Shown here one piece after another: positions 28,488 through 35,469 of a stretch of 64,000 nt of DNA. Every line of letters starts with the position of its first letter. The stretch's first letter is position 1. This DNA comes from Thermodesulfobacteriota bacterium (GTDB lineage Bacteria > Desulfobacterota > QYQD01), in contig JBFMAZ010000098.1 in the NCBI GenBank assembly GCA_040755415.1, positions 2,160 through 66,159 of the forward strand, given 5' to 3'. The position numbers were made by a program, and so were the translations under genes. The notes below the pieces were generated by a model, which worked only from the letters and a program-made list of their open reading frames with translations, was not told the DNA's origin and did no database searches.

Positions 28488-29294
28488 TCATACTACGGTG
28501 AAAACTAAGCTTTGAATAATACCGGTCGGACACTTCTCAAAACATTTTCCGCAACCCGTGCATTTCGCGGCATCCACGACCGAAAGGAATTTTACCACCT
28601 CAACCGCCTTTTCCGGACACGCCTTCTTGCACAGGCCGCAGCCCAAGCAGCCGGCCTCACAGATCTCCTTGACCAGCTTGCCAACATCGTGCGAACTACA
28701 AAGGCTCGCCACTTTCTGCGACACCGGCACTACCTTAGGGATATGCCGCGGACACACCTTGACACATGTCCCGCAGGCCGTACATTTCTCATCATCTACC
28801 CTGGGCAGGCCGTCTTCACCCATGCTGAGCGCCCCGAACGGACAATTGGCTACGCAGGTGCCCAGTCCCAGGCATCCGTAACTACAAGATTTATCACCGC
28901 CGGAGACCAGCATGGCCGCCCGGCAGTCATTAATACCCATGTATTTGAACTTTCGTTCGGCCTTGGCACTGTCGCCTTTACAGAAGATCCGGGCTACCTC
29001 GCGTTCTGCCGCCACGGCCGAGACCCCCAGTACACCGGCCACTGCCTGAGCCACCGAGGCCCCACCGGCCTTACAGGCATTGACCGGCGCCTTGCCTTCA
29101 ACGATAGCCGCCGCACAGTCACTACAGCCGGCATATCCGCAACCGCCGCAATTGGCGCCAGGCAGCACGTCGGCTACCTGCGTAATGCGGGGGTCAACAT
29201 ATACATAAAATATCTTACTGGCCACCCCGAGGATTACACTCAGTGCCAATCCTAACACCCCCATCGCCCCTATTGCTATAACTATCGGTCCCAT
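28488..29294 (-). CDS. rnfB: Rnf complex subunit B (polyferredoxin)
   Basis: LPGANCGGCGYAGC, several CxxCxxCxxxCP motifs. Confidence 0.93.
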   Translation of the reverse strand: MGPIVIAIGAMGVLGLALSVILGVASKIFYVYVDPRITQVADVLPGANCGGCGYAGCSDCAAAIVEGKAPVNACKAGGASVAQAVAGVLGVSAVAAEREVARIFCKGDSAKAERKFKYMGINDCRAAMLVSGGDKSCSYGCLGLGTCVANCPFGALSMGEDGLPRVDDEKCTACGTCVKVCPRHIPKVVPVSQKVASLCSSHDVGKLVKEICEAGCLGCGLCKKACPEKAVEVVKFLSVVDAAKCTGCGKCFEKCPTGIIQSLVFTVV

Positions 29295-29318: not shown

Positions 29319-29897
29319 TTAAGATATGCCGGCCAGGCCGTAAAAGGTAAGGCCTATCATGCCGGCCGTGATCAGCCCAAGAGGTACCCCATCCAACAGC
29401 TTGGGTATCCTGGCTATGAGCATCCTTTCCCGGATACCGGCCATAATCACCATGGCCATACTAAACCCCACCGCCGTGAAGATAGAATAAACCAAGGTAT
29501 GCATAAAATCATAATCCTCCCGGATGTTTAACACCGCCACGCCGAAGATCATGCAGTTGGTGGTTATGAGGGGCAGGTAAATACCCAAAGCCCGATAAAG
29601 CGCCGGTGATACCTTCTGGATGACCATCTCCACAAACTGAACCAGGCCGGCAATGATCAGGATAAAGGCCAGGGTCTGGAGGTATTCCAGGCCCAGGGTA
29701 TCCAGTACCGCCTTCTGAAATATCCAGCAGAGAACGCCGGAGAGGACGTTCACAAATATACAGGCGGCGGACATGCCGAGGGCGCTGTCCATGGCTGTGG
29801 TAACCCCCAGGAAAGGGCAGTTCCCCAAAAATCTGATCAGGAGAATGTTATTAACGATAATGGCCGAAAGGATAAACATGAACCAGCTTTGTTCCAT
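29319..29897 (-). CDS. rnfA: Rnf complex subunit A
   Basis: FLGNCPFLG, LPLITTNC, GIRERM. Confidence 0.95.
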   Translation of the reverse strand: MEQSWFMFILSAIIVNNILLIRFLGNCPFLGVTTAMDSALGMSAACIFVNVLSGVLCWIFQKAVLDTLGLEYLQTLAFILIIAGLVQFVEMVIQKVSPALYRALGIYLPLITTNCMIFGVAVLNIREDYDFMHTLVYSIFTAVGFSMAMVIMAGIRERMLIARIPKLLDGVPLGLITAGMIGLTFYGLAGIS

Positions 29898-29917: not shown

Positions 29918-30523
29918 TTATTTCTTGGCTTCCAGCTTTAAGGAAATAAAATTCATGATGCCGAGGAGCGAACCCAGTAAGGCAAAGGCCCCCGGCGGCT
30001 TGAGAAGGTAGGGCATGCCCGGATAGCTCTCCGGCATGACCGGTATTCCGAACCAGGAACCCTTGCCCAGTATCTCCCGTATGGTCGATACCACAACCAG
30101 TGATATGGTAAATCCTATCCCCATTCCTAATCCATCAGCCAGAGAGAGCCCGACCGGCTCCTTGCGGGCGAAGGCCTCCGCCCGTCCCAGGGGTATTCAG
30201 TTAACCACGATAAGCGGGATCCAGATACCGAGCACCAGGAAGAGTGGATAGAAATAGGCCTGCATCACCAGCTCCACTATGATGACCGCGCTGGCAATGA
30301 TGGCAATAAAGACCGCTATCCTCACCTTATCCGGGATAATCTTCCGCAGCATGGAGATAAAGACGTTACCCATGGTGGTCACAAAAATGACCCCGGCCCC
30401 CAGGCCCACTCCGTTGGCCACGTCCGTAGTCACGGCCAGGGTCGAGCACAGGCCAAGGACGAAACGGAAGGGCGGGATCTCCTTCCAGAGGCCCTTGGTA
30501 AATTCACTGACAATACGCGCCAT
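29918..30523 (-). CDS. rnfE: Rnf complex subunit E, predicted selenoprotein (Sec109)
   Basis: ORFs 30197..30523 and 29918..30124 share one frame; the single TGA (30197-30199) occupies the Cys position of PLIVVNC..GRAEAFA; readthrough gives 201 aa. Confidence 0.88.
30165..30184 (-). promoter_or_regulatory. Putative bacterial SECIS hairpin of rnfE
   Basis: CGGGCGGA-GGCC-TTCGCCCG, 8-bp stem starting at +13 after TGA, loop begins with G. Confidence 0.7.
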
Positions 30524-30540
30524 TTACAACCTCCTTAATT

Positions 30541-31128
30541 TTATACGCCCAACTGGGGTTTATATTTCCTGTAAGTCTCCACGCCGGCCTTTACTGCATT
30601 GCTTACACCGGTCGAGGATAGCGTCGCTCCACTCAGCCCCTGAACCTCGCCGCCAAGGCTGAAATTAGCCGTCAAAGGCTTGTCCTTGAACTGGGCGCAG
30701 AAGGAAGGATCATCCGCTACTCTCGTACCCACACCCGGCGTCTCGGACTGGGAGGTAATGGCTATGCCATCCAGCTTCTCGGTCTCAGGATTAACGGCCA
30801 TCATCACGCCGATCTCGCCATGAAACCCAGTACCACTGGTCTCAAAGGCCACGTCAATGACCTTACCCGCCTTCTTGGCAAAGAAGAAGGTAGTTTTAAC
30901 ATCCTTACCCTTTTTGTCCTTACCGGTTACAATTTCCTTCCGGTCGGTGACGGGGTCATTATCATAACCGGTGAGCACCTTCTTCAAGGCAGGCTCCTTG
31001 ATGAATTTTATCTGCTGATAGACAATTTGTTCCGCTGTGGCCAGTTTGACAAGCGACAGCCCGCCTCCACAGACAGCGGCCACAAGCGTCAACACCACGA
31101 TCATCTTGATAATTTCACGAACTTGCAC
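30541..31128 (-). CDS. rnfG: Rnf complex subunit G (FMN-binding)
   Basis: N-terminal anchor, ETPGVG, LSGATLSS. Confidence 0.93.
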   Translation of the reverse strand: MQVREIIKMIVVLTLVAAVCGGGLSLVKLATAEQIVYQQIKFIKEPALKKVLTGYDNDPVTDRKEIVTGKDKKGKDVKTTFFFAKKAGKVIDVAFETSGTGFHGEIGVMMAVNPETEKLDGIAITSQSETPGVGTRVADDPSFCAQFKDKPLTANFSLGGEVQGLSGATLSSTGVSNAVKAGVETYRKYKPQLGV

Positions 31129-32083
31129 TGGCTTTTACCCTCCCGTAAACCCTTGGTTTGATATAATCTAAAAGCGGGGTTAAGGTACTGGCCATAAGGA
31201 CAGCGAAATAGGTCCCATCCTCCCACTGGGACCAGGCCCTGATGACCACCGCAAGCATCCCGCCAAGCAACCCGGACAGTACCTTACCTATTGGGGTAAC
31301 CGGCGAGGTGGTGGAATCAGTAGCCAGGAAAAAGGCCGCCAAAAGGCTACCGCCGGTCAGGAGATGAAAGAGCGGGCTGGCATATTTCTCTGGATTGGCC
31401 AGCCATAGAATCCCTGAGAGGATAGCGATACCCGCCAGGAAGCCAGCCGGGATATGCCAGGAAAAATTCCGCCTTAAAAGAAGGAATAGACCGCCTATCA
31501 GTAACGCAATCTTGCACCCTTCACCTACAGTACCGGCCACCCTGCCGATGATAAGGTCTTTTAACGTAAAGTATTCCCAGATAACCCCGACCCCTTCATC
31601 CCTTAAGACCTGGAGGGGGGGCAGTTCCGTCATTATATCCCCTGCGGGCGGCGTCCAGGCAATCATGGCCTCCGGGTAGGACAGCCTTAATGCCACGTAA
31701 GCCACCAAAACCCCGTTGAACGGGTTACAGCCCAGCCCGCCATAAATCTCTTTTCCGAGAAGGATCATAATAAAGGTGGCGATCACGATCATCCACCACG
31801 GCAGGGTGGGCGGAAGAATAGCCGCAAAAACCAGACCGCTTACTACTGCCGTCAGGTCATCAATAGTAACCTTCCGTCCCATCATCTTCTGGAGGATGGC
31901 CTGCCAGGCCACGGCTGAGATCACAGAGACAGCCACGACCTTCAAGACGCCCATACCATAAAAATATAGCCCGGCGGCTAAGGCCGGAGCCAGGGCGATA
32001 ATAATATTCAGCATCATCTTCCGGACGGAATTGCCGCTATGAATATGCGGCGTAGCGGATACAACGAGTTCTGGTGCCTTCAT
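31115..32083 (-). CDS. rnfD: Rnf complex subunit D, atypical (no GAT/SAT FMN site)
   Basis: PHIH, GKEIYGGLGCNPFN, ATDSTTSP; DIMTELPPL in place of D..(S/T)xATPL. Confidence 0.88.
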   Translation of the reverse strand: MKAPELVVSATPHIHSGNSVRKMMLNIIIALAPALAAGLYFYGMGVLKVVAVSVISAVAWQAILQKMMGRKVTIDDLTAVVSGLVFAAILPPTLPWWMIVIATFIMILLGKEIYGGLGCNPFNGVLVAYVALRLSYPEAMIAWTPPAGDIMTELPPLQVLRDEGVGVIWEYFTLKDLIIGRVAGTVGEGCKIALLIGGLFLLLRRNFSWHIPAGFLAGIAILSGILWLANPEKYASPLFHLLTGGSLLAAFFLATDSTTSPVTPIGKVLSGLLGGMLAVVIRAWSQWEDGTYFAVLMASTLTPLLDYIKPRVYGRVKASASS

Positions 32084-33375
32084 TCGCTACTCCTTTGCGC
32101 CATAATTTGTGCCTTGCCGTATTTTATCCAGTGCACCATAGGTATCCTCACCGGGCATACATAGGCACAGCATCCACATTCAAAGCATGTGAATATATCG
32201 TTGGCCGCAGCTTTAGCATATACCCCCTTTTCCGAAAAGCCGGAAATAAGAAACGGCATTAGCCCTACCGGACACACCTCGACACATAACCCGCACTTGA
32301 TGCAGACCGCCGAATCATATTTGGCGACCTCTTTCTCCTGCTGCACGAAAATACCCAGCATCTCTTTGGTCACCGGCGTCTCGGTATTGCCAATGGCCGT
32401 GCCCATCATGGGGCCGCCTGCTATAACCTTGCCCATCCCTTCCACAGAAATTCCACAATGCCCTAGAACTTCCTTAACCGGCGTGCCGATCCTTACCTGG
32501 ACGTTTTTGGCACCGGTTCCATTAGTACCGGTAACCGTTATGAACCTGTCCACCACCGGCTTTTTCTCCGCCATGGCCCGGCCCACCGCCGCTACCGTCT
32601 CTACACTCAGGACCAGGGCGCCTATATCGGCCATACAATAAACCTCAGTACAGGGTACCTCCTTACCCAGTATCGACTTCACCAGCAAGAGATCCATAGC
32701 CTGGGGATACTTGGGCTTCAATCCCACTATGTTAGCCGCACCACCACAGGCCGAACTGATAGCCGATATGGCCTGTGCGGCATTTTCATCGACAGCTACA
32801 TATACAGAAGTAGCCCCGATAATACCCTTTATAGTATCTATCCCGCGCGCGACTTCCTGAACCCTTTCGGACAACAGACGCGACCGGCCCGAGAGTACCG
32901 GCTCTATGTCCATGGCATTTACAATAAGGGCATTAGCCCGGCGAGACTTTGCCTCATTAAGCTTAGCCACAAGCGGGACCGGCTTTATATCAAAATCAAC
33001 GATTCCCGCCTGTTGTATGGTGGCCAGGGGACCTGCGCTGCCCTCCAGTCCCACCCACTCATCCTTGCCGTCAGATTCTATGAGCACAGCCGGGACGAAT
33101 CCCCCTAAATAATGGGGATAGGTCTTTGTTACGTCGGCTACCTTACCGGAAACCGTGGCATGGATGTGGGCGCCTTCCGGACCGGCGCTTTCACCGATTA
33201 CCTGTCCGACCTTGACCTCATCACCCTTTTTGACCTTGGCATTACAAACTCCGCCGAGGTCTTGTTTGAGCGGGATGGCTATAACACCAGAGGGGATGAT
33301 ACGTTCGAAGGGTTTGTTTACGCTTGCTTCTGAAATAGGCAAGCAAATACCGCCAGAAAAGCTACCTGCACTCAT
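32080..33375 (-). CDS. rnfC: Rnf complex subunit C, atypical (degenerate flavin/NAD site)
   Basis: IHATVSGKV, YPQA, GGPMMG, CIKCGLCVEVCP, CFECGCCAYVCP. Confidence 0.88.
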   Translation of the reverse strand: MSAGSFSGGICLPISEASVNKPFERIIPSGVIAIPLKQDLGGVCNAKVKKGDEVKVGQVIGESAGPEGAHIHATVSGKVADVTKTYPHYLGGFVPAVLIESDGKDEWVGLEGSAGPLATIQQAGIVDFDIKPVPLVAKLNEAKSRRANALIVNAMDIEPVLSGRSRLLSERVQEVARGIDTIKGIIGATSVYVAVDENAAQAISAISSACGGAANIVGLKPKYPQAMDLLLVKSILGKEVPCTEVYCMADIGALVLSVETVAAVGRAMAEKKPVVDRFITVTGTNGTGAKNVQVRIGTPVKEVLGHCGISVEGMGKVIAGGPMMGTAIGNTETPVTKEMLGIFVQQEKEVAKYDSAVCIKCGLCVEVCPVGLMPFLISGFSEKGVYAKAAANDIFTCFECGCCAYVCPVRIPMVHWIKYGKAQIMAQRSSE

Positions 33376-33509: not shown

Positions 33510-33887
33510 TTATTTTTTGTGACATTCGCCGCACATCACCGGGAGTGACTTGCCTGCTGCCGGTTTGGTCTCGCGGTGACAACCCACGCAGTTCTCGTGA
33601 AACGCCTTCATAAGCCCCATCTTCTTGCCCTCCGCCTTAAGCCCGTGGCAGGCCGCGCAATTCGTCTCCCGCGACTCATCCCACACGTTCTGTCCGTCTA
33701 CATAAAAATGATGGCACGCCGTACACTCAATGGTGGCAAAGTGTTGGGCATGCGGGAACGTCACGCCCGGCCTCTGTCGTTTTTCAAATGCCTTATGCTC
33801 CAGTTTCAGCACTTCTTCCTGGGCGTAAGCACAGGTAGCTATAAAAATAGCCAAAACTATCGTTAGCAGAATGCCATTATTTTTCAT
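33510..33887 (-). CDS. Class III tetraheme cytochrome c (c3 family)
   Basis: SD aggagg, signal peptide, FPHAQH, CTACHH, CAACH, CVGCH, CGECH. Confidence 0.92.
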   Translation of the reverse strand: MKNNGILLTIVLAIFIATCAYAQEEVLKLEHKAFEKRQRPGVTFPHAQHFATIECTACHHFYVDGQNVWDESRETNCAACHGLKAEGKKMGLMKAFHENCVGCHRETKPAAGKSLPVMCGECHKK

Positions 33888-34039
33888 CTCTATCCTCCTG
33901 ACCGGCAATAACCCACTGAATCACAGTTCAGCTTGTGTGTAACAAAATAGAGATTATATGTCAAGGAAAATGTCTATCCCCAAAACAGACGTCGCCTTAC
34001 CAACTTTTTGTCGAGCATCTTTAGTGAATTAGACCAAGC

Positions 34040-34224: not shown

Positions 34225-35469
34225 TCATAAGAATATATCGAATAACTCCACCAGATGCACAGCCTGGGCATTAAGCCCATGTCTAAACAAGCCCTCCTTC
34301 CACTGTAGCAGGCAGCCCATACAACTGGTGACTAACATGTCCGCATCCATGTCTTTTAGGGCCATAATTCGCCTGGCGAGGATTTTACACGATAAATCGT
34401 AATGGGTAAGGTTGAATAGTCCACCGTGTCCACAGCATGTGGGGCCATCCTCGAATTCACAAAAATCAACTCCGGGTAAGGACTTGATGAGCAGACGCGG
34501 CTCCTCGAGGATTTTTTCTCTAAACCGAAAATGGCAGGGGTCATGATACGTCACCTTCAGGCGCCCGGTTTTCGGCGCAAGGGCCGATAACTGTCGGGAA
34601 AAATTTCTCTTATGAGACAAAAAGACCGATATATCCATAACTTTTGCTGAAAATTCCGCTGCTTTTTCTGCAAAAACCGGGTCACCGGCAAGAAGTTTGG
34701 GATAATTGAATCTTAGATGTGAGCTGCAAGAGGCGCAGTTCGTAATGATGTAGTCGCATCGGCTGTCAATAAATGCGGATATATTGGCCCTAGCCAAGGA
34801 TTGTGCCGTCTCTTCGTCCCCCGCGGCAAAGGCCGGAAACCCGCAGCATTTCTGTTTCTTGGGTGTCCATACAGGCTCGCCAAGGAAGTCAAAAATATTC
34901 AGGACAGCCTTCCCCACGTTAGGAAAGAGATAATTTGTGATACACCCTGTAAAGTAAGCCACCTTAGCTGAGGTGTTTATTTCCTGAGGCAGGTCATTCT
35001 TCAGAAAAAAGGTCGCCGCCAATGACGGCAGCCATGACCTCCCGGCCAGCAGTGGAATCGGGAACCGGCAATGGAGGCCGCTATCTTCCGGGACTCTTTT
35101 GCAGAGGAGTCCCTGGATCAGGGAACCGCCTTTTAGTATAAAGGGCAAAAGGCGTTCAGAATCCAGAAGGTAATGAAAAAAGTATCGCTTCCCCGCGGGA
35201 AGTCCTTTTTCTTTGACCAAACTTGCCCGCGCCTCCTGTACGGAGGCATCCGCATTGACCCCGGCAGGACAGGCATTCGTGCAAGCCCCGCAAAGGAGAC
35301 AGTAAGAGAGCAATTCTTCAAAGCGGTCGGAAAACGGTAACCTGCCTTCCCGATTCGCCTCAATAAGGCTTAATTTACCCCGTGGGGAATAGGCCTCCAG
35401 CCGCGTCACCTGGTAAACTGGGCAGACACTCATACACGTCCCGCATTTATTGCATGAAGGTGTGCTAAT
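34225..35469 (-). CDS. GlcF/HdrD-like Fe-S oxidoreductase with two CCG domains
   Basis: CNKCGTCMSVCP (begins upstream of the tracked ATG), CLLCGACTNACP, CCGFP, YHDPCH, CCGHGG; ATT start is inferred. Confidence 0.85.
   Translation of the reverse strand: MSTPSCNKCGTCMSVCPVYQVTRLEAYSPRGKLSLIEANREGRLPFSDRFEELLSYCLLCGACTNACPAGVNADASVQEARASLVKEKGLPAGKRYFFHYLLDSERLLPFILKGGSLIQGLLCKRVPEDSGLHCRFPIPLLAGRSWLPSLAATFFLKNDLPQEINTSAKVAYFTGCITNYLFPNVGKAVLNIFDFLGEPVWTPKKQKCCGFPAFAAGDEETAQSLARANISAFIDSRCDYIITNCASCSSHLRFNYPKLLAGDPVFAEKAAEFSAKVMDISVFLSHKRNFSRQLSALAPKTGRLKVTYHDPCHFRFREKILEEPRLLIKSLPGVDFCEFEDGPTCCGHGGLFNLTHYDLSCKILARRIMALKDMDADMLVTSCMGCLLQWKEGLFRHGLNAQAVHLVELFDIFL

Follow-up and report, generated by a model that had tools for sequence, protein, structure and literature searches.

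In a 64,000-nucleotide stretch of the genome of a Thermodesulfobacteriota bacterium (GenBank assembly GCA_040755415.1, contig JBFMAZ010000098.1, positions 2,160 to 66,159; hereafter the window), the rnfE gene of the Rnf complex carried an in-frame TGA as its 109th codon. Our analysis indicated that this UGA109 is very probably a genuine selenocysteine (Sec) codon served by a SelB-recruiting hairpin, and that the full-length RnfE of 201 residues is made. In the following, G000 is the source genome of the window, and other numbers beginning with G, L, and P stand for the genomes, loci, and proteins that were compared with it.

The minus-strand open reading frame (ORF) of rnfE at 30523..29918 consisted of 201 codons with its own TAA stop, and the sole in-frame TGA was codon 109 (30199-30197, minus strand) in the context LIVVN-U-IPLGRAEAFA. 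Translation table 11 cuts this frame into a product of 108 amino acids (30197..30523) and an ATG-initiated ORF of 68 amino acids (29918..30124). The read-through protein scored 202.7 bits against PF02508 (cut-off 23.8), 235.9 bits against RsxE of NCBIfam (NF009070; cut-off 184), and 209.4 bits against TIGR01948 rnfE, slightly below the cut-off of 213.4. Scores with the nqrD, rnfA, and nqrE models were far below those with the RsxE/RnfE models (nqrE TIGR01940, 67.3 bits; cut-off 247.55). RnfE has two ligand-cysteine (Cys) positions, one at the break in helix I and one at that in helix IV; the first was kept as Cys26 in the LGLC motif (codon at 30446..30448, minus strand), and the second, position 109, was UGA. 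The intact rnfA gene (29319-29897, minus strand), identified by profile matches, encoded both of its ligand cysteines, LGNC27 and LITTNC114. A first-pass annotation made from the letters of the window had described rnfE as split by one TGA at codon 109 in LIVVN-TGA-IPLGRAEAFA, with Cys26 and both RnfA cysteines retained, and the 201-codon frame and the three motifs agree with this description.

Among solved structures, RnfE matched 9eri_E and 7zc6_E best (E of about 7e-51), followed by 8ahx_E and the NqrD subunit 7xk3_D, over a range from 7e-51 to 9e-37. Residue 109 aligned with C108 of 9eri_E, C109 of 7zc6_E, and C122 of 8ahx_E. According to Vitt et al. 2022 (PMC9588780), the invariant Cys25 and Cys113 of RnfA and Cys26 and Cys109 of RnfE, in the numbering of Clostridium tetanomorphum, form a metal site where helices I and IV are interrupted. 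A 2025 review describes it as an RnfA/RnfE [2Fe-2S] cluster with four Cys ligands, which takes electrons from RnfB and hands them to the flavin mononucleotide (FMN) of RnfG, and whose redox state is proposed to drive the inward/outward switch of the pump (PMC12174285). The UGA therefore stands at the position that the first-pass annotation had named, that of the conserved Cys which ligates the membrane iron-sulfur center together with RnfA.

To the claim that codon 109 replaces a conserved Cys, comparison with related organisms added the following. Matches to rnfE were present in 19 of 41 related genomes. The genus comprised seven genomes, six of them with rnfE, and rather than being unique to one strain, the TGA at codon 109 was shared by five of these six (G000, G004, G003, G005, and G001), whose RnfE proteins were 93–100% identical in amino acids and 84–95% identical in nucleotides. 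It was also present in two metagenome contigs of the same clade with distinct proteins (L048 and L049). The nearest outgroups were of the Cys type, with TGT in G006 of the same genus and TGC in G007 of a sister genus, so that the alternation of TGA and Cys codons that the first-pass annotation had proposed to look for was found, together with a hairpin kept in the TGA clade. Codon 109 aligned with the VVNC cysteine in all 17 Cys-type homologs (G006, G007, and fifteen further members of the phylum), and all 36 further homologs, which also served as the control set for the hairpin, had TGC or TGT at this site. In a broader set of 401 genomes from the phylum, 164 had an RnfE match, and among the 150 matches listed, with 59 more lying outside them, an internal TGA occurred in the five genus genomes only; the internal TAA and TAG codons listed are presumably the terminal stops of the genes. 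The change from Cys to the proposed Sec arose within the genus. In all sequences of the TGA clade, the second residue after the UGA was proline (Pro111 in U-I/V-P-LGR; residues 110-112, 30185-30193, minus strand), and in every aligned Cys-type homolog it was I, V, or L. Possibly the proline adapts the helix break to selenium or to the RNA structure.

Downstream of the UGA, the mRNA can form a hairpin of CGGGCGGA / GGCC / UUCGCCCG (30184-30165, minus strand), as the first-pass annotation had noticed. It has an 8-bp stem and a 4-nt loop with an initial G, and its first base is nucleotide 13 after the UGA. The model of the bacterial selenocysteine insertion sequence (SECIS), termed bSECIS, asks for a loop of 3–9 nt, a stem of 4–16 bp, a G in the first two loop positions, 16–37 nt from the UGA to the loop, and a minimum free energy of -7.5 kcal/mol or lower (PMC13188914, Fig. 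2 legend). The rnfE hairpin agrees with all of these rules, with its 8 bp, its GGCC loop, a 20-nt spacing, and -12.5 kcal/mol. When 36 Cys-type rnfE genes were scanned as controls, the best value was -8.7 kcal/mol, and only one of the 36 reached -7.5 kcal/mol or lower. The stem was identical in all seven TGA-clade sequences, and the sole hairpin base that varied was the fourth of the loop, in L048. L027 and L028, which are Cys relatives, had two of the eight stem pairs broken, and three synonymous differences from these nearest Cys relatives (CGG/CGT, GCG/GCC, and TTC/TTT) accounted for both. Thus, the stem was both conserved in and specific to the TGA clade. Within this clade, six of six degenerate codons in the hairpin were invariant, against 87 variable codons among 162 elsewhere (a rough probability of 0.01, the species not being independent), and the longest run of invariant codons in rnfE, eight codons (113–120), coincided with the hairpin. 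A second, 6-bp hairpin with the loop GGUCG lay downstream of the first at 30145..30161 (minus strand); it had one compensatory change from C-G to U-A in G005 and G001, a weak signal given that 82 of 500 shuffles reached the observed covariation, and its role is uncertain.

Several observations weigh against Sec insertion at UGA109. The 81-nt region folded with a z-score of +1.19, and 179 of 200 shuffles folded at least as well; because this score of the 81-nt region was not significant, the case for the hairpin rests on the comparison with relatives. Helix 1, the stem of the first hairpin, displayed conservation only, its eight pairs never varying and no compensatory change being present, and the TGA species are close relatives (84–95% nucleotide identity). 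The rules of the bSECIS model are lenient. The G-R-A-E-A-F-A codons come close to self-complementarity and give a partial hairpin even in Cys genes, so the structure comes partly from the coding sequence. A scan of rnfE against Rfam yielded no match to a SECIS model and only chance-level matches to unrelated eukaryotic families, a null result of little weight given how varied bacterial SECIS elements are. In addition, no RNA run was listed as matching the gene, and no sequencing run shared more than 0.12 of the sampled words.

The partial hairpin of Cys genes also has a bearing on the origin of the element. In many Cys-type genes, a hairpin of 5–7 bp, such as GGGCAGAGGCCUUUGCCU, carried a GGCN loop, and the spacing of 20 nt was the same. 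From this we infer that the rnfE site may be predisposed to gain a working SECIS, the invariant GRAEAFA codons acting as a proto-SECIS. We propose that a change from Cys to Sec would therefore be easy at this site, and possibly recurrent.

Complete machinery for Sec insertion was found in the source genome. G000 encoded selB (381 bits), selA (651 bits), and selD (381 bits, itself with one TGA), and a tRNA-Sec (selC) of 78 bits with the anticodon UCA was identified by ARAGORN. TGA is an ordinary stop codon in G000, where it ended 389 of 1145 ORFs of at least 300 codons. The other four TGA species also had selA and selB. Of the Cys-type relatives, G006 had selA and G007 had selB; because these relatives carry Sec genes, the whole family appears to use Sec, and the change in RnfE is site-specific. 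Beside tRNA-Sec, G000 had a 93-nt tRNA with a long variable arm (C56:11537-11625; L002:1501-1593) that scored 52.7 bits on the tRNA-Sec model and carried the anticodon GCA for Cys. It was one of three tRNA-Cys(GCA) genes in all, and it cannot read UGA. It resembles the tRNA-Sec-like tRNA-Cys species of deltaproteobacteria that Mukai et al. 2017 (NAR) reportedly described as possible opal suppressors.

These tRNA genes bear on the possibility that UGA109 is read through without Sec, either by a near-cognate tRNA for Trp or Cys or by the Sec machinery inserting Cys under selenium scarcity. The presence of the 93-nt tRNA-Cys speaks for such a reading. However, its anticodon GCA reads UGC and UGU, not UGA, and tRNA-Sec was the only tRNA with a UCA anticodon among the 46 found by ARAGORN in G000. 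Moreover, Trp would be unable to ligate the cluster, and a SECIS-like hairpin lying at the canonical distance implicates SelB. We therefore regard read-through without Sec as unlikely.

The reading frame behind the UGA was under constraint in the TGA clade. Selection there was purifying rather than relaxed: in ten pairs of TGA species, the ratio of nonsynonymous to synonymous substitution rates (dN/dS) of the C-terminal half was 0.028–0.098 at dS of 0.14–0.87, indistinguishable from the 0.025–0.067 of the N-terminal half in the same pairs. The downstream half contained no additional stop or frameshift, and in codons 110–133, from the TGA to the next ATG, the changes were mostly synonymous. Because the TGA is shared, selection is purifying, and codons 110–133 change synonymously, neither a pseudogene nor a truncated product fits. 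These codons count in particular against a split gene, in which translation would stop at UGA109 and restart, and two half-proteins would assemble without the fourth ligand. Two species, G004 and G003, do have a GTG as a possible start right after the TGA. Nevertheless, G000, G005, and G001 have ATA there, with the next ATG only at codon 134, and the stretch between still evolves as coding sequence. A split gene would also leave the clade-specific invariant hairpin unexplained, and it would lose a cluster ligand kept in all 17 aligned Cys-type homologs; we consider it highly improbable.

The remaining alternative takes rnfE for a pseudogene, or its TGA for an error made in sequencing or assembly, and Rnf for non-functional. 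It is suggested by the split under table 11 and by public gene calls truncated at 108-109 amino acids (P0003–P0005), but it is close to refuted and hardly credible given the TGA in five separately assembled species genomes and two metagenome contigs, the dN/dS below 0.1 downstream at dS of up to 0.87 in an uninterrupted frame, the intact remainder of the operon, and six Logan contigs from four runs of four studies that span the codon, with no difference at 30197-30199 among the 40 rows listed (130 further rows lie beyond these; the contigs over codon 109 are those of relatives and not raw reads of the source organism). As a separate observation, several Logan contigs from different runs ended or started at about 30166 and at 30187-30202, flanking the invariant hairpin; the probable cause is that the assembly graph branches at identical words which strains have in common.

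Sec insertion at residue 109 is, on these comparisons of sequence, the most likely reading of the UGA. SelB with Sec-tRNA(UCA) would be recruited by the 8-bp GGCC-loop hairpin starting 12 nt behind the UGA, and UGA109 would be read as Sec to give the RnfE of 201 residues. Residue 109 lies where the fourth transmembrane helix is broken. In the solved structures of Rnf and NQR, the homologous Cys holds, with Cys26 of RnfE and the two RnfA cysteines, the intramembrane cluster that carries electrons from RnfB across the membrane to the FMN of RnfG. In the TGA clade, this cluster would have one selenolate and three thiolate ligands. Of the selenolate-ligated cluster proposed in the first-pass annotation, the Sec codon is supported by our results, and binding of iron by the selenium of Sec109 is predicted by homology to the Cys-type proteins. 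The redox potential, or the inward/outward switch that is driven by the redox state, may be affected.

A genome-wide screen of G000 for in-frame TGA by coding potential returned 117 candidates, and rnfE itself was missed at its thresholds. Ten of the 117 were tested in Pfam, and three were credible selenoproteins (L074, L075, and L079): a fusion with an FdhA-type subunit, a fusion of thioredoxin (UxxC) with a thioredoxin-reductase-like protein, and an HdrA-like protein. L074 (C22:117302-121417) encodes 1371 residues with a 2Fe-2S ferredoxin, a GltD-like FAD/NAD(P) oxidoreductase, 4Fe-4S domains, and an FdhA-type molybdopterin subunit, and its Sec motif HCARLUHSS falls within PF00384, in the formate-dehydrogenase-type part. 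L075 (C62:26345-27997), likely a selenoprotein, has a thioredoxin-like domain with the UxxC motif TUPYC fused to a thioredoxin-reductase-like flavoprotein. For six of the other candidates (L076, L077, L078, L080, L081, and L083), Pfam gave no match, and these resemble antisense artefacts, whereas L082 proved to be two adjacent genes. In the window, an in-frame-TGA screen at a lower threshold gave no further convincing case besides rnfE.

To find TGA at the same codon in other lineages, the pattern N-TGA-xx-LGRAEAF(A), for which an exact LGRAEAF was required and about 0.1 chance matches were expected by our own arithmetic, was searched in 185,579 genomes, each from a different species, and in metagenome contigs. 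It occurred in three places in the genomes and in three metagenome contigs. Four of the six matches belonged to the clade described above: the proteins of L045 and L046 were the same as those of G004 and G003, and L048 and L049 were distinct. The fifth, L044, was from an Actinomycetota metagenome-assembled genome (MAG) named 'Candidatus Geothermocultor quzhuomuensis' (G401), in which a divergent RnfE had its TGA at this codon, with a downstream half that was open and of full length. G401 had a canonical cluster of selA, selB, and tRNA-Sec(UCA). None of its 27 relatives with a match had the TGA, and its simple hairpin (-5.0 kcal/mol) was identical to that of a Cys relative. This case is weaker than that of the genus, and we do not count it as established. 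The sixth match, L047, was a Bacteroidales-like contig of 3.7 kb with rnfC (partial), rnfD, rnfG, rnfE, and rnfA, whose RnfE shared 79–81% identity with partial proteins that bear the names Prevotella or Phocaeicola; it had TGA at the same codon and a weak hairpin, and it too is weaker than the genus case. In both TGA cases outside the clade, the residue at +2 after the TGA was I, V, or L and not Pro. G401 also had a second full-length selB paralog (359.6 bits) in addition to the selA-selB-tRNA-Sec cluster (C6:72818-74964, L051; C13:21761-25161, L050, L052, and L053). This paralog adjoins a tRNA-Sec-like tRNA-Cys(GCA), which suggests a dedicated pair of elongation factor and tRNA.

Further gene calls from other lineages ended exactly at ...PLIVVN or ...PLIAVN (P0009, 69% identical; P0027, 64% identical; and P0083), and these are known from their protein ends alone. 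A Sec form of RnfA was sought in 251 genomes of the phylum, and none of 127 matches had an internal stop. From the distribution of the TGA, one might suppose that one intramembrane [2Fe-2S] ligand of Rnf changed from Cys to Sec on several independent occasions, the proto-SECIS being the reason, and that the selenolate tunes the pump. The lineages concerned would be the Thermodesulfobacteriota genus, the Actinomycetota MAG, the Bacteroidales-like organism, and possibly two Desulfobacterota-like organisms represented only by gene calls ending in ...PLIVVN. In such a history, it is proposed that the selenolate would tune the potential of the cluster or its redox-gated inward/outward switch. We hold repeated conversion to be a tentative idea, for which the chances fall a little below even.

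The rnfC, D, G, E, A, and B genes followed one another without interruption (33375 to 28488, minus strand), and the operon was intact. The gene order was cytochrome c(III)-rnfC-rnfD-rnfG-rnfE-rnfA-rnfB. All on the minus strand, rnfC (32080..33375), recognized from the ORF list and a domain match, had no in-frame TGA; rnfD (31115..32083) matched PF03116 with 325 bits; rnfG (30541..31128) had an FMN_bind domain match; and rnfB (28488..29294), the poly-ferredoxin subunit, matched Fer4 families and PF04060. A class III cytochrome c gene (33510..33908, minus strand; PF02085, 55.8 bits) lay directly upstream of rnfC, and upstream of this c3-type cytochrome gene was a gene for a CCG-domain iron-sulfur protein similar to HdrD/GlpC (34225-35433, minus strand). 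In Desulfovibrio, Rnf is linked to periplasmic cytochromes, and the c3-type cytochrome and CCG-domain genes near rnfC hint that this Rnf is likewise wired to periplasmic cytochromes.

The first-pass annotation expected automated pipelines to misread the gene, and public calls do truncate RnfE at 108-109 amino acids; with RnfE cut at 108 residues, Rnf could be wrongly scored as broken in metabolic reconstructions of these anaerobes of groundwater, sediment, and hot springs. If Sec109 ligates the cluster, this natural one-selenolate variant would offer a built-in 77Se probe of the RnfA/RnfE (NqrD/NqrE) cluster and a natural test of how the chemistry of the ligands determines the behavior of the cluster. 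With regard to evolution, a conserved peptide motif could pre-form a SECIS and so make the switch from Cys to Sec accessible.

A Sec protein of the same Pfam family as RnfE (PF02508) has been catalogued before. Zhang, Fomenko, and Gladyshev (2005; PMC1088965) list a single Sargasso Sea selenoprotein sequence assigned to COG2209 with the motif TXXU, and the same text gives an NADH:ubiquinone oxidoreductase entry as an earlier candidate of Kryukov and Gladyshev 2004. In GOS 2008 (PMC2398784), the catalogued family has 3 Sec and 1,484 Cys sequences, and the family is also listed in reviews (PMC9312934 and PMC13188914), a 2022 review giving COG2209 (NqrE) with TxxU. The catalogued NADH:ubiquinone oxidoreductase subunit E and the RnfE described here have in common one Sec that is rare against a large Cys background. 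The TxxU motif fits LITTNC of RnfA/NqrE, which would be the second ligand Cys of the paralog (a match we infer), and it does not fit VVNU of RnfE. The catalogued entry was assigned to NqrE from marine metagenomes without an accession, whereas the gene here is an rnfE that falls short of NqrE orthology, lies in the rnfCDGEAB operon of an anaerobe, and has a TGA conserved across species. The available parts of the catalogues class the NqrE entry among redox motifs, without mention of metal ligation; they contain no link of the PF02508 selenoprotein entry to an iron-sulfur ligand, and the accessible text of the Rnf/NQR review (PMC12174285) does not contain the string 'selen'. In the literature on Sec together with RnfE, RsxE, NqrD/NqrE, or Rnf, no report of Sec in RnfE was found, the selenoproteome supplements, which may list RnfE-type sequences, being outside this search. 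An RnfE-type Sec sequence may thus have been listed earlier. The doubt about priority voiced in the first-pass annotation was justified to the extent that a Sec form of the PF02508 family (NqrE) has been catalogued since 2005; no report of the RnfE form was found in the literature searched. RnfE is best described as a further paralog, conserved across a genus, in an already catalogued but obscure selenoprotein family, and what is added here is the predicted placement of Sec at the ligand position of an intramembrane [2Fe-2S] cluster and a coding sequence that appears to pre-form the SECIS.

Three other groups of proteins can be compared with this RnfE. An RnfC-type selenoprotein was catalogued in 2016 (PMC5029168); it is also related to Rnf, but it is a different subunit with a different fold, and rnfC of the window lacks a TGA. 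The Cys-type RnfE/NqrD proteins of the solved complexes (C. tetanomorphum 7zc6; 9eri, with the highest-scoring RnfE chain; A. vinelandii 8ahx; and V. cholerae NQR 7xk3) matched our RnfE strongly in sequence and share with it the helix-break motifs LGxC and VVN(C/U)xxLGRAE and the operon partners, whereas the RnfE of the TGA clade would have Sec at the second ligand. In FdhA, Sec ligates Mo or W, and in [NiFeSe] hydrogenase it ligates Ni. Both are, like the RnfE proposed here, redox enzymes of anaerobes in which Sec stands for a metal-ligating Cys, and G000 has an FdhA-type selenoprotein as well. In contrast to their catalytic sites, the center in RnfE would be a membrane-buried [2Fe-2S] electron carrier.
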